Assembly (NCBI GenBank): GCA_951406725.2
Contig: OX597815.1
Span: 138,756,001-138,820,000 of the forward strand
DNA from: Octopus vulgaris
Lineage: Eukaryota
Direction: 5' to 3'
DNA length: 64,000 nt
Part shown: positions 1 to 63,587 of the stretch, one piece after another
Layout of the letters: every line of letters begins with the position of its first letter
Numbering within the stretch: the first letter of the stretch is position 1
Position numbers and translations under genes: made by a program
Notes under the pieces: generated by a model
The model's database searches: none
What the model was told of the DNA's origin: nothing
The model's input: the letters and a program-made list of their open reading frames with translations, nothing else

Positions 1-1039
1 ACTGACTGTAACGGTAGAATTTGAAGGAGAAATTATGTCTTTCAATAGTTAACTTCCTTTACAATTACATTTCTCAATGGCTAGGTATAACCGCAGATAT
101 GAACGATCTTTAAAATACTGTAAGTTATACGGAGTACTAGTAAAGGAATAAACTACTTAATACTTCGTACAGACAAAATAAAAAAGAAAGGTAACTTAGG
201 GTATTTTCTAGCCGTGAACGTATATAGTTATAATAAACTTTGTTATAGAAGGATTTTTTTCAGTATTTAATTAATCGACATTCCTGGTGATAGACAGGAT
301 AGTATACTTCGAGAAAAAACATCTACAATAATGTGTAAAAAGAAATATTTTCGTCTTTACATATATGTACTATTGGACATTCAAATACTGGTTGTGTTAA
401 GTAAAAAATGTTTTTTAAATCTGATTAAATCAGTAGAATATAATTAGTCTTATAGACTCCGGACATGGATACATGCGCTCTTAACATAGTTCATAAAACA
501 TAGAGTTTACCATAAAACCAAAGTTAATTCCCATATCCATTATTACTAACATTAATCTATTTTCGTTTAGGACATCATTTTGTATTTGTTCTGGATCAGT
601 TGGTTTAGCAGGTAGCTAACTCGTGTTAATAAACAAAACTGACAGACTAAGCGTTCATTCAGTTTATCAATATCTTAAATTCAGCAAAACAAATAGCTGG
701 ATGTGTGATTAAACTGACATATTTAACATTCAGATAATTCCATTTAAGTGATGGGTTTCTGAAAATTTACCTCCTGCCGATGCGATCATGTAGAAAGCAG
801 GTAATATACGCACACATATTTAGATTAAAGACTTAGATAATAACATAGAATATATTTAAAATATATATGGCTACATTAAGAGGAAATATTCGAAAAACAG
901 AAAGAGAGTACACGAAAGTACACAGAAAAAGAGTACCTGCCGAGGCTATAATGAAACACATCTCATATTCAATTATAATCCAAAGCGTTGCAGCAGTGGT
1001 CATAGCCATGGCTGATAAATTGAGGTTTGTGCGCGTATT

Positions 1040-1600
1040 CTTTTCTACTCGAATTTTTGGGAGAGGGGGACAGTCGATTTGATCGACCCCAAGACGCATC
1101 TGGTACTTACTTTATCGAACCCGAAAGGATGAAAGGCAAAGTCGACCTCGGCAGAATTTGAACTCAGAACGTAAAGACAGACGAAATACCTATTTCTTTA
1201 CTACCCGTAAGGGGCTAAACACAGAGAGGACAAACAAGGACAGACAAACGGATTAAGTCGATTATATCGACCCCAGTACTGGTACTTATTTAATCAACCC
1301 CGAAAGGATGAAAGGCAAAGTCGACTTCGGCGGAATTTGAACTCAGAACGTAACGGCAAACGAAATACCTATTTCTTTATTACCCACAAGGGGCTAAACA
1401 TAGAGGGGACAAACAAGGACAGACATTAGTATTAAGTCGATTACATCGACCCCAGTGCGTAACTGGTACTTAATTTATCGACCCCGAAAGGATGATAGGC
1501 AAAGTCGACCTCGGCGGAATTTGAACTCACAACGTAACGGCAGACGAAATACCACTGAACATTTCACCCGGCGTGCTAACATTTCTGCCAGCTCGCCGCC
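1040..1600 (-). mobile_element. Head-to-tail trimer of a tRNA-derived SINE: 1370-1600 full head with LINE-type tail; 1191-1369 headless with LINE-type tail; 1040-1190 headless with ordinary tail
   Basis: Three repeats of the core gaaaggatga(a/t)aggcaaagtcgac(c/t)tcggc(g/a)gaatttgaactca. The minus-strand head aggcggcgagctggcag...gagttcaaattcc has A/B-box-like motifs. Flanking near-TSD tttgtgcg(c/a)gtatt at 1026-1039 and 1601-1614. Confidence 0.85.
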
Positions 1601-4600
1601 TTTGTGCGAGTATTAACAGAAAAGAAATTCAGTTGAGTTTTAACTTTAAGAAGAACAGTATAGGTAAGATATTTATTAAGGAGGAACTTTAGGGATGAGA
1701 GAAGAATCTCATCTAAAATCTACTCGTTATCTACTTATATCATCTGCATTTACATGAAGGGAAACTTTTTTTCGTACATTGTGTACTCATTAAAAGTTTT
1801 GTAATGGAATTTCCATTTCCTTTATTAGTTATTTTGAGCTAGCTGACGAACATCGAGCTTTCGCAGTTTTAACTATACGCTATAGTTGATAATTATTATG
1901 AGTAACTCTAGTAAGTGGACAAGGGTATATATTGTTTCATATAAATTGTCATCAATGGATTTACGCGTTTGACTGATATGTTCAGTAATGGGTAACTGTG
2001 CTGAGTGATTTTGTGGATGACGTATCTGTGTATTTGATATGTACAAACCCACTTCAACCCCCCCCACACACACACACAGACGCAAACACACACACGCACA
2101 AATGCTGAAATTTCGTATATCAGGGTACAAACAAACATTTGCTATTTACACAATGATCTTTTAAAATGTCATAGGTGAGTGACCAAAATACAGAAGATGC
2201 TCAATAAGTCTGCAGTAATGAAAGAAAGTCACAATAATATGTAGAATACATAATATATCTATATTTACCGTGCGTGTCTATTAAACATTTTAAAATTGAA
2301 ATACTAGAGAGTATTTTGTCCTGTTTATTACATATTTGATTAATTTTTGTCTGAATATCTCACTTATTTTAAGTGAATTTTGAGAGCTGTTTGTTTTCTA
2401 TTTACTCTCACTGATAGTTATTTTCGAAATATTACTGAATATTGTCTGCTGATTTTTCATGACAAAACAAATATAGTATAAATGGCATAGATATCAGTTT
2501 TTCTTTTTTCTTTCACTTTCAAACTAAATTGACATATCGCTGATGAAAATTATTTCATTAATTGAGCAAACACGCTTCTTTATTAACTTTTAACATTTCG
2601 AATTATTTTCATAAATTCCTACACAAAACAAAGTTTCCATATATGTATAGGATAATTATTGAAATTTATAACTGAGAATTTCTAATTTACATTGACCGAT
2701 AAGTGTTTTCAATTAAATAAAGTTAATTACTAAATGTAAAACGACTATATTTGTTGACAAATAGGCGAAAGTAATCTTACGCAGATTACAAAACAAACAA
2801 ATCAATCTAGTTTAAGGTATGGCCATCATTAAGACAGCTAAAATCATTTCTATATCTGTTCAATATCTTAGTTTTGCTGTTTGGCACGTGACACATATTG
2901 GTTCCCGCTTGTTTTTAAGGACTTCTCTTAATATTATAATGCATTTAAGAAAGATGCACAAATATATATACATTTTATTATATATTTTGGACAAGAATGA
3001 AAATTGTGATAATGACAATCGTAGACTCTCCCACGCACATCGTATTACAACATTAATGTTCAGTATTGACACTTGCATGTTGATTGTAGAAACAAATATC
3101 TAGAGTCTAGGGATACTGGAGAAGTTTGTACACCAGTCCGCGGAAGATTTTCACCGTAGTGATAAGCGTGCTTCTGCAGATATAGTACAGATGACGAGAA
3201 GTTGACAGATGGATGTAGTAGTTATGTGAGAGTAGAGTTGCTGCGCAATTAGCTCTAAATAAGAGACGCTTTTGTATAATATGCAGAAGATAAACAGTGA
3301 CGGGATGAAGCAGCTACATATTAAAAAAATGAAGCGTGTTCGTGCGTGCTTTGTTACTAATCGGACGATTAGTTATATTTTGCATTTGGTTTAGGATATT
3401 TTAATTTGCATTAACAGAATTAAGAAATATATTGTCTAAATATGAAGCATTAGATGAAATATGTACTGTTCTTGAAGAGGATTGCTAGTCATTTGTACCA
3501 ACTTTGAATGTTTTACTTGTGTGCTGCACTATGATATAGGTGCTGATAAACAATACGGTTTACCTTATGTGTGAGGTCTTTGTGTCATTGTGAAATTAAA
3601 TTCTTTATATTACAGTGATTGTACAATGTATGTAAAGAAATTAAGGTACCTTTATGAAAGATTATATCGAAGATAGGAAAAATAACAGCAACTTGTTACA
3701 GTAACCCTAGTTCTAAACTTCAAAAGTAACAGGTGTCCTTGCTATATAACAAGGTAAAATTGCATGGAGTCCACCATATTTGAACATAAAACCAGTTATG
3801 CCGTTTCTTTGTTAATGCTCTATTCATAATACTAAGAATCACTCGGTAATTATGGCTGAATATTCAGCAGTAGCTATATGTAGCTGTATATTTGGCGATG
3901 AATTGTAGTTCCCAATCATTTTCGTTTTGCTGCAGATCATGTCGCTGGTTTCTCAACTTACTGAGTAAAATTTGTTTTCTTATCTCTAATGGAAGAACAA
4001 AATGTAAAGTTGGTTAAAACCATATGTTTTATTCATATGTACAGCTATTCTAACTTTACTTGAAATCTCAATAGCAGTTTTTTCGACCAATGTAAACCCC
4101 GTAATAGTTAATGCCACATATTGATGCGCGTCCTGAACTACCGCTGACACCTGCAAGCTGTGACATTTGTTTAAACAATGATTTTTTAAAAATGTATTCT
4201 GATTTTAACGGAAACTGAATAGTAACCGACATAAGAATATATTTCTTTGGACGATTAACTTTATGCTTAGGGTTAAACATAGCCTCACAATCTCTTGGCT
4301 AGCTTTTTCTTCGATCGCCGCAGGTCTCTTATTGTAGCAGAACTAAGTAATTTCATTTGAAAAGGCGGGTAATAAATTTGAATAAACCAGCCACTTACAC
4401 AGTCATGTTAAAACATTATCAGGATGTCTTATTTTCATTTGAGAGGTGAGAAAGCATAAGCCACATTCGATCTTCACAAATTTTATCATTCTCAGTTACT
4501 TCAATGCCTACACATTTTATTGGGTTTGAAACTAGTTCCTGTCCATAAAAACACAATCATTCACTCACCCGAAAAGCCTGTACATGTTAGTATATATCTT

Positions 4601-7574: not shown

Positions 7575-7820
7575 TGTTTTATTATTACCCACAAGGGGCG
7601 AACACAGATGGGACAATACATTCTGATGATGGGGTCAGACAAACGAATGGGTTTTTACAATAAATCGGGTTTAAAAATTTTCATGAATAACAATAAATGG
7701 ACAGAAATCGAGTGATAGGACAGACCGGAAGACATTACGGGTGGAGTGGGTGCGGGTTTAGCTCGGACCCCACGAGCCCCGCCTCCCCACTGATACTTTT
7801 GGTTGCACTTGGTATTACAT

Positions 7821-10800
7821 TTATGTTGTAACTTTCATTCGCAACTTCCGTGCTACATCCTTCCATCGTTCTTCATACGCTCTCCTAGTCAGGCATATTC
7901 TCTCCAGCCCTATCTTCCTTTTCAGGTGAAAGATGAAATAATTCATCAAACCAGGGCCGGAGATGAACTTGCCTGACTGTAAACCTTTCATTCTCGTCTT
8001 CCATATCACCTCTTTCGCGATTGCTACTACAACGAGAAAACGAAACTTACCTTCATTCACGAGGAAATCCGGTGGGTCAATTTTTGTAATCGACTCAGTC
8101 GACAGCTGTACTCTTCGTGTACCTGACAACAGGTGTTCGGCATAAACCCACACCTCAGACACGTCCGGACAATGAACAATCGCGTGCGGGACGGTTTCCC
8201 TATCCCGCCCGCATCTTGGACATATCGGACTGTCTTGGCCACCGTGCCTTGCGAGTTTATCCCGAACAGGTAGAGCTCCTCTGTAGCATTGCCATGCCAG
8301 AGACTTCTGGAAGTTGTCCAGTGTCCTTGGCTCGAACGTACGTCGGAACAGACTGGCCAGCTGGTTATCGTCGAGACCTAGGGTTTCCCCAAGGTATCTT
8401 CACATTCCGCCTCTACCAACCCTCTATAGAAGAAAGTGGTGGAACCCCCACCGCAGGCGTTGCCCGAGCGACGGAATAGCAGGAGAGCCTTGCGACACTC
8501 CGTGTACCAAGTACCAAGTTTCGATCTACGATTCAGCCAGGTTTCCCATCCACCGAAACTAGTGAACTTGGGAAACATCAGTTTTGCTAGCGAAGACCAC
8601 ACCCGTTCACCATCCAGGTAGAGCCACAGATGTCTTAACCTCAGCGCATGTCTGCGCATCATCAGCCAAGGCATCCCTAGCCCACCCTTTAACGGTTGTT
8701 GACAGCAAGTAGAGCGTTTCACAAGTGGTTTCCCGCCCTTCCACAAGAAGTAGAAGAGCTGTCTTTCCAACTTGATCAACCACGAATCAGGGCAAGGAAC
8801 GACGGAAAGGCGGTAGGTGATAACCGATGCGATAAACACATTGGCCACCTCCGCCCTCCCTTTCAGGGATAGCCACCGCCAAGACCAGGTCTTGGCTACT
8901 GCAGCCACCTTGCTCGTTACCTCGCCCCAATTCTTCTCTATTTGGAGGTCTGGACCGAACCAGACCCCTAGCAGTTTAATCGGACCCTCCGTCCAACGTC
9001 CCACGACGCTGTCAGGAGGCATCGACTTGCCTCTCCAGGTGCCGAGTTGCAAGCCGACTGACTTTTCGCGATTAACTTTTGCTCCTGTCACCGTCTCGTA
9101 CACCTCTATGGCCTTGCCTACTTTACATAGGTGGTCCATTTCGGTTACGATGATGGTGATGTCATCCGCGTACGCTGACACTGATTTTCCATTACCTGGC
9201 TGTCTCGGGATGCCGCTCAGTTTTCGCAGTAATGGCTCAAGAGCCATCACGTACAAAAGCGGGGAGAGCGGACACCCTTGACGAACCGAGCGTTTGATTT
9301 TGAACGGCTTCGACAAGAAGCCGTTCACCCGAACTACCGAGTCGATGTTATCATAAATTTCGATAATCCACCTGAGGAATCCAAGGCTCAGCCCGAACTG
9401 TGCCAGGGCAGATACCAGGTAACGATGGTCGACCCTATCAAAAGCTTTAGATTGGTCTAAATGGACCAGTGCCCCACCCTTGCCAGAATCACTATTAAAC
9501 CCCTCTATAGTGTACCGCATTAGATGGAGATTATCCTGAATGGATCTGCCCGGAACGGCACATGTCTGTGGCCCCTCCGATCAGACCATCCGCGACACGC
9601 GCCAATCTTTTCGATAACACTTTGGCCAAAATCTTCAACTCTGTGTTTAGCAGAGTGATGGGCCTGAAATTATCAATGCACTCCCCCTTGCTCGGGTCCT
9701 TTCTGACGAGAGTCACTACTCCCCGGCGCACAGATCTGGGTATAAGCCCGTTCTGCTGCCAGTTCGCGTAGACCTCCGCCAGTAGGTGCCCGAACAAGTC
9801 TGGCATACTCTTATATAACTCATAGGGTAGACCATCCAAACCCGGCGCCTTGCCCGCGCCGCAGTCCGCCATTGCCTCAACCACCTCCTCAGGCGTGATT
9901 GGCCCTTCACAGCCCTCCGCATCTCGCCCCGATAAGCGCGGCAGACCGTCGAGTAGGTCCGTAAAGGCCCTCCTCCTATCCAGTCCGCCGCACTCACCGA
10001 AAAGCTGAGCGAAGTGCTCCTGAAAGGCCTCACACATCTCCTCGGGTTCGTTTATCAACTCACCTTGTTGGTTCGTCAAAGATCGAATCGTGGCATCGTT
10101 ACCATGCTGAGCTTCCACCACTCGGGCCCATCTCACGGCGTTGATTCCTTCACATCCCATATGACGGATTCTAGCCCTGACAATGCAGCCCATGTGTTTG
10201 GCCTCGAGGTGCTGGTTTAACACCAGTCTCTTGGCCGCCACCTGAGCCGCAGAGCCAGTTTTCATGGCTTCCTCTAATTCCTTAACTAGAGTAGTTTCCC
10301 TTCTAGCCTCTCTAGCCACTACTCCTATGCTATATCTAATAGACTCAAACTTGATGGCTCGTTTGAGGGCGTACCACCATTTGTTATTAATGATGGTACC
10401 AGATAGTGCCCTCTGAATTATATTCCTAATCCGGTCTTTGTACTCCTTAATCGCCAAAAGGGACGTATTAAGTTTCCAGTAACCGGATCCTCTATTTTTA
10501 ACCTTATCTATGTCAAGCTTACAAGTGACCATTTTATGATCACTGTAGCTGATCGGGTAAAACTGTGGACACTTAGCTATTTTACTGTCTACTTTTCTAA
10601 TTAGTATTCTATCTAGATACGACCTGGAAGATCCGTCGCTGTTTGACCATGTCCACAATGGAGCGTTCGGAAATTCCAGCCTATAAGGATCTGCTAGCTC
10701 AAAGCGGCTTAGCAGTTCCATGAAGCCACTGTTGCCTTTTCTATCTGGACACGAGCCAACATAATCTACATCCGCTTTGCAAATTGTGTTAAAGTCTCCT

Positions 10801-11216
10801 AGCACCACTAATGAATGCGAAGTACCAAGAAAGTTTTCTAGTTCACGAAAATAATCACTTTGCCCTGTATGGTTGGGTGCGTAAATTGCAACCAGTCTGA
10901 TAACTTTACCATTACTGAACGTCAAATCCATGACGACCAGCCTACCTTCTGGATCTGCAAAAATTAACTTTTTCTCAGAAACCCGGTTTCTTTTTAATAG
11001 GACCAACACCCCACTCCCGCCTGTAGGACTGCCAGGAGAGAAAAAACTCTCGTAGCCGTCAAACAGCGGGAGTAGACCTCTTGGCCCCTCTAGCCGGGTT
11101 TCTGTAGCAACAATAACATCTAAATTACGCGACCTGATATCATGCAGGAAGCGACCTTGCTTCCAGCCTGCTCCCAGGCCGCGCACATTTAAACAACCAA
11201 CATAAATGTAATCCAT
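7821..11216 (-). CDS. LINE ORF2: APE endonuclease, reverse transcriptase and C-terminal zinc finger; two 1-bp frameshifts (~9570, ~8387)
   Basis: APE motifs LNVRG, ETR, IYAPN, GDFN, LDRI, SDH. RT motifs LDQSKAFDRV, QGCPLSP, YADD. Bridging the shifts gives QTCAVPGRSIQDNLHLMR and ETLGLDDNQL...CPRCGRDRETVPHAIVHC, which joins the ORF pieces 9531-11216, 8378-9520 and 7821-8162. Confidence 0.92.
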
Positions 11217-11225
11217 TACTTACCT

Positions 11226-12604
11226 TTATATCAGTGGTTCGGTTTTTTCTTCTTCTTCCTTCTCTTTTTCTGGGCCTCGTGGGGGAGTCTGACGTAGGCC
11301 CTCGAATATATGTGGAGATGTTACATCCAACCTAAGTGGGCCTACGTCATGGAAGAATTCTGACTTTATCCGCCCGTAATCCTTCCGGTCTATTTTGTAA
11401 ATTACAAAGTCATTTTTTTTCTCTACTCTCTTCACATTGGCCATGGCTGCCAACACGTTTCCGAGTCTGCTATTTGATGCTTTTACGGCCATATATGAGT
11501 TCATTGACTCTTTTTTCTTTTTTAAAATTACTCTGGGAGGGGTGGTTTCCGTTTTTCTTTTTTTTTTTCCGATAATTTTTGCCCACCCCTCCTCATTTAT
11601 CTTTTCCTCGCTCTTTTTTTCTCCGCCGCTGGTTCTGCTGTTACCATCACCTCCACACCTTCAGTCTTCCCTTCTGGGCCGTCTGACGCTGCTTCTGGTG
11701 ACACATTGTCTTCTTTTTCTTTTGGCTTAGGTGCTTCCTGCGGTTTGGGTTGGGGCTGGCATTCCGCCCTTACATGCCCCTTCTTACCGCAGCCGAAGCA
11801 CCTCGGCTTTCTGCCCTCTACGAAGACTGTGACTCTTTCATCTTCGCTTATCCTTAGAGTCTCTGGGATCTCTTCCAGGGTTTGTACTTCTGCTTGTATG
11901 GCTATTATTATCTTTTGCCCTTTCCAGAATTCTTCTTCTTCTACGGTGGCCTGGAGGATGTTTATTTTTTCCTCCAGGCCTACCATAACTGCTGCCACTA
12001 GGACTTCGGCATCCGCTTCTGGCGGGATGTTGTTCATTGTGATCTTGGAAGTTCTCTTGCCTTTATACAGGGGTAGGAGAACAATATCCTCCGCTTTTAT
12101 GGGTTCCATGGATAGCTTCTTCGCTACCTCCTCTGACGTGAATCTCACCTCCACTGTGCCGTATTTCTTCCCTCGATTGATATACGTAATTTTATCCATT
12201 ATTGGCTTTAAGCAGTTTTCAATCTTTTTCTCCTCTATTTTTTGGATTGCTCTGTTTGTTATACTGAATGTCTTATAGATTATTCTCCTATTCGAAATAT
12301 CCTCCTGTATTTTGGCGTTTGAAGCCACGGTTACTTCCGTGCCCTCTTTTGACACACAGTCCGCATGTTTTCCCAGGTTGTCCACGTTAATTTTTTTAAT
12401 TTTCTTCCCAGCCACTTCAGCGAATTTTTTTGCTGGAGTTGATGCTGGTACTGGTTTTACCATTTTCTTGGGCGACGCCGCCTCTTTTTTCTTCGGCGAC
12501 AGCGCCTCTTTTTTTCTTGGCGACAACGCCTCTTTTTTACTTGGCGACAACGCCGGGTATTCATCCTCGCTCGTCACGGGCGAATAAGTGATGGGGGACT
12601 CCAT
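11226..12604 (-). CDS. LINE ORF1 (RRM-like region plus CCHC zinc knuckle, ~460 aa), one frameshift in an A-run at ~11615
   Basis: CFGCGKKGHVRAEC matches CX2CX4HX4C. Shifting frame gives SEEKINEEGWAKIIGKKKRK...KESMNSYMAV, in frame with ORF 11226-11504. The first ATG is at 12604. Confidence 0.85.
12465..12552 (-). repeat. 24-bp coding minisatellite in ORF1 encoding (A-L/A-S-P-x-K-K-E) about 4 times
   Basis: ALSPSKKE ALSPRKKE ALSPKKKE AASPKK. Confidence 0.85.
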
Positions 12605-12986
12605 CTTGAACAAATGGCTTTAACAAGCCTTTGGTAATCTAAATTGATTGTAGTTTTCCCCCACTGAGGGGGAACACCAACGCGAAGTCTTCGCGCGAAG
12701 GTTGACTTCGTCCGTTAGACAACAATGGACAAAAAAAGGTAGACCAACAGTATATAATAACAGAGATAAGTAGTATGAGAGCAAAAATATATATCAACTT
12801 ACTAATAACGCAATAAATTGATTTCCTCCATGTGATTTCTTTATTACCCACTAAGGGGCTACGAAGAATGGCGGACATAACAAAACATGGGGACATAGAA
12901 CATTATAATTAAACTTTATGAAAATGAATTGTTAAACGAAAAAAATGATAAAATGAAAGCGATACCAACGGCCCCGTCCGTCAGCA

Positions 12987-56067: not shown

Positions 56068-56275
56068 TAGCTGGCAGGATCGTTAGCACTCCGGACAAAA
56101 GCGTTTAGCGGCATTTCGTTCGTCTTTATGTTCTCAATTCAAATTCCGCCGATGTCAACTTTGATTTTCATCCCTTCACGGTCAATAATATAAGTACCAG
56201 TTGAGCACCATGGTCGATGTAAACGACTAACACCTTTATCCAAACTTGCTTGCCTTAGGTGAAAATTTGAAATCG
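56068..56275 (+). mobile_element. SINE monomer, first family, with an uninterrupted tagcggcatttcg site
   Basis: agctggcaggatcgttagcac...tagcggcatttcgttcgtc...ttcaaattccgccga. Confidence 0.8.
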
Positions 56276-61777: not shown

Positions 61778-62203
61778 TAAATAATTTAGCCAAACCTGCC
61801 TGTATCCTAAAAATTATGATAATTTAGAACTGCGTCTCACCAACAAATATATAAATATTCTCGACAAATATAACCAGTAGGTATTCAAGTTTAATATGAA
61901 CTGGGAAATCATCTAGTGGTTGTCGGTACTACACTCAAACTAGGTTTAGGAAGTAGCGCGGGTGTGGTTTCAGCTATAATAGAATTACTCGATGAGTAAA
62001 TCCTTGAAGTTTGCAAACCGTCATTGATTCCTTCCAAATTTCTAGAACGAGCTGTTCAACAGCAAAAAGGAATTTTTCATAGAAAAGCTTCCTAATGCTG
62101 ATAAAAGTATATGGTTTTCAAGTACAAAAAAATCCCTTCAGCAGCATGCCAATGATTTTTTTTTATCTATAGCTAGTGATTTCGCATATTTATCAACCAT
62201 TTC

Positions 62204-62544
62204 AGGCGGCGAGCTGTCAGAAACGTTAGCACGTCGGGCGAAATGCTGAGCGGTATTTCGTCTGCCGCTACGCTCTGAGTTCAAATTCCGCCGAGGTCGA
62301 TATAATCGACTTAATCCGTGTGTCTGTCCTTGTTTGTCCCCTCTGTGTTTAGCCCATTGTGGGTAGTAAAGAAATAGGCATTTCGTTTGACTTTACGTTC
62401 TGAGTTCAAATTCCGCCGAGGTCGACTTTGCCTTTCATCCTTTCGAGGTCGATAAATTAAGTACCAATTGCATCCTAGACTCGATCTAATCGACTGGGCC
62501 CATCCTGCCAAAATTTTGGCCTTGTGCCTAGAGTAGAAAAGAAA
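62204..62544 (+). mobile_element. SINE dimer: 62204-62376 full head, internal deletion, LINE-type tail; 62377-62544 headless with ordinary tail
   Basis: Junction ...gtgggtagtaaagaaata|ggcatttcg; near-TSD tt(t/c)atcaa(c/a)catttc at 62189-62203 and 62545-62559. Confidence 0.85.
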
Positions 62545-63587
62545 TTCATCAAACATTTCGAATAGTTACTCTTTTATCGGCTAGCCATGGTATTTCACTA
62601 GCATTATTCTTAAGTTCTTATTTCTGCATTTTTACCTCGAGTTAGCTCTGAGCTGATGACTATATCGCTTTCTTAAGACCGTAGACTGATGGAAAGATGG
62701 AAAACTTTTCTGGTAAGTCGATCGAGCGCCTAAAGTAACCTCATTGCTTTATATTTCTAAACATTTTTGGTGATGTTTTGAAATCTCAAACAACTTTTTT
62801 TGTTTCCCTCGATAGCAACACTACCACGCAGCGACCGAATCATTTGCAATTGAATATTTCGTGCAATTTTCTGCTACTATAGGGCCAAATCTGCATTGGT
62901 GTTTCTCCTGATTCTCTCTTCGACAATACAATCCTGATACTCGATCCTAAAAAAATTAGCTTTGAAACAACACATCTTTAAACGACAAGGCACTGATTTT
63001 TCTTTAACACATCTTGAGTAAGTACTAAACACATTGGCAGATCATTACTTCATACATATGCAACCACCACCAATTAAATAAGCTACAAACCAAGAGAAAC
63101 TCAGAGTAAATCAATTACATTTGTGTATCAGTCCTGGTGAACATTCAGCGTAGTTGATGGCAATCCCGACTGGTTAATAACCCTCAGATTTTTTTGTTTT
63201 AACGTTATCGTTTATAGGTAAGATAAGAGGCAAATTTAACACTAAGATTATTCGAACTCAGAAGGCAAAGATTTGCAACGAAATGCATTGAGTAATGCTC
63301 CTCCATATTATACAGATTTTGTTATACCCAACACTTCTCAGCAAAGTCCGTCAGTAAATTGAATGTGTTTTATTTAATACTGAATTTCAGCGAGGTGTTA
63401 CATTTAACAGAAAAAGCTACTTCACAATGCTATAGATGTACTTCTTGAGGAAAAAAGCATCTTATAACACCATTATATAATGATTGATGTAAAAAAAGTA
63501 TGAAACTAACTGATTCATATATCTGTATACGAGTCTTCTGCAAAGTATGAAATACACATAGATGAAGACAGTCAAAAGAATTTTTAT

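Follow-up and report, generated by a model that had tools for sequence, protein, structure and literature searches.

The window analysed here, a 64,000-nucleotide stretch of the Octopus vulgaris genome, carries close to its start a SINE trimer on the minus strand (1600-1040), in which a single SINE head is followed by three bodies; the dimer at 62205-62543 has the same joint (Table 1). In agreement with the sequence-only reading of this DNA, all three SINE-type tails in the window end AAAGAAATA and run on into GG(T/C)ATTTCGT (1370/1369 and 1191/1190 on the minus strand, 62376/62377 on the plus strand), the first G of the joint being SINE position 48. The near-TSD noted around each multimer was confirmed as well (13 of 14 bases match for the trimer and 14 of 16 for the dimer), and so was an uninterrupted site near 56110. 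Unit 2 of the trimer is identical to unit 1 at 162 of 179 bases, and the units in the window are about 10% apart. The trimer is free of any T4 run (terminator), and its last unit is likely the host SINE.

Table 1. SINE multimers, the intact target site and the LINE found in the window.
Feature	Positions	Strand	Remarks
SINE head of the trimer, SINE positions 1-47	1554..1600	-	A box tRNA-like by eye
Trimer unit 1, body from the target site (position 48)	1436..1553	-	B-box-like motif
Trimer unit 1, LINE-type tail	1370..1435	-	homologous to Tx1-like LINE 3' ends
Trimer unit 2	1191..1369	-	body from position 48, 1369-1256; LINE-type tail, 1255-1191
Trimer last unit, body from position 48 and ordinary tail	1040..1190	-	young ordinary subtype
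Trimer outer TSD, 3' copy	1026..1039	-	compared with 1601-1614
Trimer outer TSD, 5' copy	1601..1614	-	
Sister Tx1-like LINE, related tail, different target	7575..12835	-	Pfam APE endonuclease, RT, zf-RVT
Older SINE with intact position-48 site	56069..56228	+	site at 56110
Dimer outer TSD, 5' copy	62188..62203	+	3' copy 62544-62559
Dimer first unit	62205..62376	+	head, body with ~60 bp internal deletion, LINE-type tail
Dimer last unit, from position 48	62377..62543	+	ordinary tail

The SINE tail of about 65 bp was aligned with the 3' ends of four LINE-like elements and gave 45-52 identities over 60-65 aligned bases. A 3' tail homologous to a LINE, together with TSDs and 94,775 exact tails in the genome, is what was found of the characters of a tRNA-derived SINE. 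ARAGORN returned no genes and Rfam no matches for the SINE, the A and B box-like motifs being judged by eye only, and four tail sequences folded no better than their shuffles (z -0.65 to 0.42). Contigs from a related species (organism C) cover positions 500-1050 and 1568-1974 of the window, so both outer ends of the trimer are common to the two species, and the last bases of its ordinary tail (to 1050) are present on the orthologous contig. No contig from the four runs placed on the window spans the element. The tail-to-core depth of 0.11 in organism C vs. 0.54-0.64 is a hint only, contig depth not being equal to copy number.

The frequency of the joint was determined by counting the exact tail pattern across the 2.8-Gb genome and by classifying tails in a sample of 1.464 Mb (12 blocks, one of them containing the window). 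Tails had been proposed to be always joined to the same SINE position, and this did not hold: 28,838 of the 94,775 exact tails in the genome run exactly into the position-48 site. The sample gave 142 tail matches, 138 of SINE type, and 107 were counted after 31 tails lying in two long arrays on contig C5 had been left out. Position 48 followed 44 of these, non-SINE DNA followed 58, a point near position 12-15 followed 3, and another part of a SINE followed the remaining 2. Position-48 sites make up only 339 of the 2.93 million strand positions in the sample (about 1 in 8,600) and at most 16% of its GGTAT words; because such sites are so rare in the sample, the excess at position 48 is far above chance. 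The preference depends on the tail variant. Tails of the CAAT variant were found at position 48 in 509 of 12,872 cases (4%), as against 28,329 of 81,903 (by subtraction) for the other three variants; hence two tail bases shift the preference about ninefold. Joins were also concentrated near SINE position 12-15, a further hot spot, which was used mostly by the CAAT and CAGT variants (L003:1500, L008:1500 and sample blocks). The last monomer, expected to be always ordinary-tailed, is so in both window multimers, but among 48 last units in the sample 24 were LINE-tailed, 16 ordinary (young subtype) and 8 of other kinds.

The tails lying outside SINEs behave as retrotransposon insertions. From 235 tails checked, 98 were in non-SINE DNA; a head lay as far away as expected in 65 of these, and 36 gave a TSD match of 12-19 bp. 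About 7 of those matches are distant from the head and possibly due to chance. Since the final A of the tail differs from the target in 26 of the 36 TSD pairs, it belongs to the element, and the TSD begins just past it. In about 5 of the 36, the 3' copy agrees at its first or second base with the element and not with the target. The non-SINE flanks are themselves far from random, 36 of the 58 in the sample starting NNTA (9% in the background) and 12 starting AGAA; genome-wide, ANNTA comes next after 44,516 of 55,935 tails of the main variant.

A 5.3-kb LINE family uses the same base as the SINE, 48 of the 49 copies read ending at SINE position 48. The seed was a decayed LINE in the sample, which ends at position 48 and has a SINE head at its 5' end. 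The best 30 matches to the 3' end of this copy all stop at the site; 26 of them continue into a SINE body, 1 into a TSD and a full SINE, and 3 into a TSD and another LINE. Among 19 further copies, 18 are at the site, 15 of these with the junction base of a younger subfamily. A short LINE-tail pattern had 75 matches, 13 with the expected junction; 20 of the other 62 were read, and one of them was a SINE. Six young loci were read at length: five hold a full-length 5.3-kb copy that splits a SINE into bases 1-65 and the rest, with a 16-bp TSD, and the sixth is 5'-truncated. The young copies are 96-100% identical. Across copies, the family encodes an APE endonuclease (PF03372), a reverse transcriptase (PF00078), zf-RVT (PF13966) and an ORF1 zinc knuckle (PF00098). 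Preference for a target sequence (48 of 49 copies) combined with a TSD (16 bp) is the behaviour of the Tx1 clade, and we take the partner LINE to be Tx1-like, a label given from architecture and behaviour, as the named hits to it bear generic names only. The SINE tail is about 75-77% identical to the end of the partner LINE over the aligned bases, which is no nearer than it is to two other elements, and a search by pattern for LINEs with exactly the SINE tail gave no matches.

All five full-length young LINE copies (L301, L303-L306) lie behind a minority variant of the SINE head, which is carried by about 11 of 51 tailed monomers; this bias may reflect either a target preference or overwriting by the donor. 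At three of five young LINE loci a T/C difference was also seen between the 5' and 3' TSD copies, which hints at a donor origin of the 5' sequence, though it does not track LINE-internal variants cleanly.

The LINE present in the window is a sister of this family. It was considered as the partner of the SINE and rejected, 24 of 30 copies ending at another repeat; the others end at their own or a similar 5' end (3), at a different SINE-like sequence (2) or elsewhere (1). In ORF2 it is 71% identical to the SINE-targeting LINE, and the solved structure nearest to this ORF2 is human L1 ORF2. The family is young: frameshifted in the window, it has 1132-aa open frames elsewhere, and its copies sometimes lie in tandem (L131-L160). 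An ORF1-only array adjoins the 5' end of the window LINE (12836-37400, minus strand). It consists of about 14 units of about 1.76 kb with an ORF of about 499 aa that has no Pfam match; the units carry a tail almost identical to the last 27 bases of the SINE tail, and their junctions vary. The suggestion that the SINE multimers are a small-scale parallel of this array is a loose one: the type of tail is common to both, but the junctions differ. Other LINE 3' ends with related tails (blocks C5, C3 and C22) terminate in microsatellites, either (TATC)n, (TAA)n or (ATT)n. The Tx1-like families appear to have radiated onto different targets.

The SINE itself inserts into resident SINEs. A pattern combining the TSD with a full head had 128 matches, and 30 rows were read; in 22 of them (21 loci) a full tailed SINE is flanked on both sides by the site, and 8 lacked this arrangement. 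Compared with the last unit of the host, the nested inserts are younger (4.2% vs. 9.6%, 21 pairs, p = 0.001). At G000:C1:1,122,470-1,122,930 a full tailed copy splits an old SINE. The empty site of this insertion was found in organism C, in which contigs from three runs of three studies (one per run) join L063:2518 to 2767 without the 248-bp insert. Self-insertion is very likely the origin of the position-48 joint. Site-specific insertion into resident SINEs, as proposed from the letters of the window, was thereby upheld in part: the LINE at the same base, the loci of the form site, SINE, site and the empty site all speak for it, whereas the preference is partial and varies with the tail variant. 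Two tailed SINEs (L193 and L204) have part of a host head at the 5' end, inside their own TSD, and are likely derived from read-through transcripts of nested donors.

How the site is chosen allows for a variant of self-insertion, not for an alternative to it. Targeting might depend mainly on base pairing between the 3' end of the RNA and the nicked DNA; transcripts that read through from nested donors would then end in the target itself, and the enzyme would be only loosely specific. The ninefold effect of two tail bases speaks for such pairing, as do the roughly 5 of 36 TSD pairs in which the 3' copy follows the element; however, the 5' TSD copy, which is the true target DNA, usually holds the motif already, different LINE partners for each tail variant would explain the same data, and about 7 of the 36 TSD matches are perhaps fortuitous. 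We regard predominant RNA pairing as rather doubtful.

Different considerations apply to the multimers with a single head, the commonest form and also that of the window, since a second head was found in just one of the 43 headed multimers. Several observations favour independent insertion. Adjacent tailed units are 5.9-38% apart in 24 of 28 arrays, where random monomer pairs average 12.9%. First and last units showed no linkage of variants (Mantel p = 0.09 and 0.26, n = 14). The last units belong to several subtypes, as they do in proven LINE hosts, and are not younger than proven hosts (5.3% vs. 6.2%, p = 0.18). On the other side, they are younger than free ordinary monomers (5.3% vs. 7.7%, p = 0.008), and their age does not exceed that of first units (5.0% vs. 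4.2%, p = 0.37); the 26 "single" rows of the age comparison include a few position-12 joins. Where a dimer ends in the young ordinary subtype, its head is young and donor-like (5.3%, compared with 12.3% for ordinary monomers, p = 0.005). Within the expected TSD, donor alleles were present in 10 of 13 first units, at places where host alleles should have survived a simple join by short homology. Taken together, these data imply that the join lies in the head, through overwriting or later deletion, or that some dimers travel whole. The 5' end had been supposed to be resolved by homology with the host head; this is plausible, but the heads of single-head dimers look donor-derived and not host-derived. 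The donor-type heads fit homology-directed 5' joining or deletion, and they also fit the spread of some dimers as units. On balance, merging by homology is probably the main source of the single-head multimers, a claim we make with some reserve.

The spread of whole units raises the possibility that most single-head dimers are a composite SINE, which arose in a few founding nestings and was then copied as a unit from the head to the last tail, as Alu and other dimeric SINEs are. Lack of a four-T run in the trimer would permit RNA polymerase III to read through it, and L193 and L204 look like read-through copies that took part of the host head to a new site. Donor-like heads, the near-total loss of the second head, the similar ages of first and last units and the youth of last units relative to free monomers are likewise what whole-unit copying would give. 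The last units, however, are of several subtypes like those of proven LINE hosts, the units are unlinked, and some single-head dimers resemble L088:373-770, where a young first unit lies between an old head and an old last unit. A composite SINE would also leave the LINE at the same base and the empty site unexplained. Instead of one fusion, co-descent and a uniform structure, the marks of a fixed composite family, we found mixed last units, 2 to 24 units and no linkage, in samples small enough to accommodate a composite subset. We consider it unlikely that most single-head dimers have this origin. At L063:3668-4063, another single-head dimer, the contigs of organism C gave no bridge either.

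Unequal recombination or gene conversion between SINE copies at the DNA level, acting without targeted insertion, is contradicted as the main source of the multimers and very improbable in that role, since it cannot first create the fixed joint of tail to position 48, the window units are about 10% apart, and the TSDs, the empty site and the LINE all indicate insertion, and it holds for the long uniform arrays only. In four arrays (24, 7, 5 and 4 units) adjacent units are only 2.4-3.3% apart; these long uniform arrays are products of local DNA amplification and grow by local duplication, as the near-identity of their units shows. At G000:C5:60,092,070-60,098,043 (L090), near-identical SINE units of 184 bp form one array of 24 and another of 7, together with a higher-order duplication; the locus looks like a satellite in the making. 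Short-period arrays (about 64-69 bp) made of the SINE head and TSD were also observed at G000:C10:17,996,026-17,996,501, C5:87,874,181-87,875,484 and C13:69,036,080-69,036,318.

Altogether, we consider it likely that the trimer and the dimer are SINEs nested at position 48, probably inserted by the enzymes of a Tx1-like LINE, with the homologous heads probably merged at the 5' end. The tail would recruit the LINE machinery, as tail and target common to the two suggest, and the endonuclease and reverse transcriptase of that LINE or of a sister family would insert the tailed SINE in trans. The DNA is nicked where a GGTAT-like motif begins, and a TSD of about 12-19 bp results, as seen at non-SINE sites and around nested full-length copies. 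Recognition of the site may be enzyme-based, with some help from pairing of the RNA end. Every insertion remakes the site, so that units stack, as the tandem LINE and SINE copies show. The second head could be lost at insertion, if the host head is overwritten by cDNA that has paired with it, or later, by deletion between the two 65-bp repeats; the present data are compatible with both routes. Against nesting by LINE enzymes stands the specificity of the SINE, which is far lower than that of the LINE (about 30-41% vs. 98%). No single-head multimer gave a direct empty site, and the young donor-like heads and young last units also fit dimers copied whole.

More tentatively, and with less confidence than in the nesting itself, we raise the possibility of a self-reinforcing loop between LINE and SINE. 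The LINE would target its own passenger, each passenger insertion would plant and duplicate the target, and the donor head would overwrite the host head by homology; old SINE promoters might thus be refreshed by targeted, RNA-templated gene conversion, with two tail bases acting as a switch for self-targeting.

The closest precedent is found in crocodilians, in which, according to the accessible text of Kojima 2015 (PMC4494074), Tx1-Mar LINEs and SINEU share one target in a Mariner DNA transposon. The same text gives 13-23% of SINEU-1/2 and 90% of SINEU-3 at the target, and tandem copies formed by sequential insertion (PMC4494074). As far as that text allows a comparison, a Tx1 LINE with a passenger SINE, a single target in an abundant repeat, a weaker specificity of the passenger and tandem stacking are common to both systems. 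Tx1-Mar/SINEU, as described there, has a Mariner target, a SINEU with a poly(A) tail and an snRNA head, and tandem copies split by the TSD; in the octopus pair the target lies inside the passenger SINE itself, the tail is of LINE type and the second head is usually lost. Judged from this account, the octopus pair works like Tx1-Mar/SINEU and is not a member of it. Other Tx1-clade targets listed in the accessible text are Tx1D for Xenopus Tx1, U2 snRNA genes for Keno and microsatellites for Kibi and Koshi (PMC4494074). These elements, as presented there, likewise prefer particular sequences in multicopy targets, but their targets are not SINEs moved by the same machinery.

Dimeric SINEs such as Alu, Urop and the tree-shrew Tu II/III are treated, in the portion of PMC13023118 at hand, as fixed composite families that derive from a single fusion. 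The octopus multimers resemble the dimeric SINEs described there in having two or three related monomers, one head and one pair of TSDs. They differ, by the same partial account, in that the joints recur at a targeted base, the units number from 2 to more than 20 and the last units are of mixed subtypes. R2 targets 28S rDNA, has a restriction-like endonuclease and joins its 5' end in a homology-directed manner. R2 is also co-transcribed with its target, as stated in the accessible part of PMC4494074 (citing Eickbush 2000 and Fujimoto 2004). Target-derived sequence in the RNA could likewise give precise homology-directed 5' junctions in octopus, where the element has an APE endonuclease instead.

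In the literature covered (Repbase entries and subscription papers lay outside its scope), neither a SINE-targeting Tx1 nor a self-inserting SINE was described in octopus. The parts of PMC4824008 and PMC4758252 consulted do not describe octopus LINE-SINE self-targeting, and the consulted part of PMC13282606 names L1-Tx1 and SINE families and is silent on targets. No sequence for comparison, whether a central domain of the CORE, Meta or V SINE superfamilies or a consensus of octopus OR1/OR2, was present in two of the three supplement files of PMC4824008 or returned by a full-text search.

The usual targets of site-specific LINEs are rRNA and snRNA genes, microsatellites and DNA transposons. Here, the target lies inside a SINE that apparently uses the same machinery, so that the passenger provides new landing sites both to its own kind and to its carrier. 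The multimers are prone to mis-annotation, either as a 184-bp satellite or as a family of dimeric SINEs, and in this group SINE presence/absence markers depend on the resident copies. Exact nested joints number about 29,000, one LINE subfamily is young, tail variants contrast ninefold and sister LINEs have other targets; the octopus genome therefore offers a natural test system for the origin of sequence specificity in an APE endonuclease and for the way in which non-LTR insertions are joined at the 5' end.
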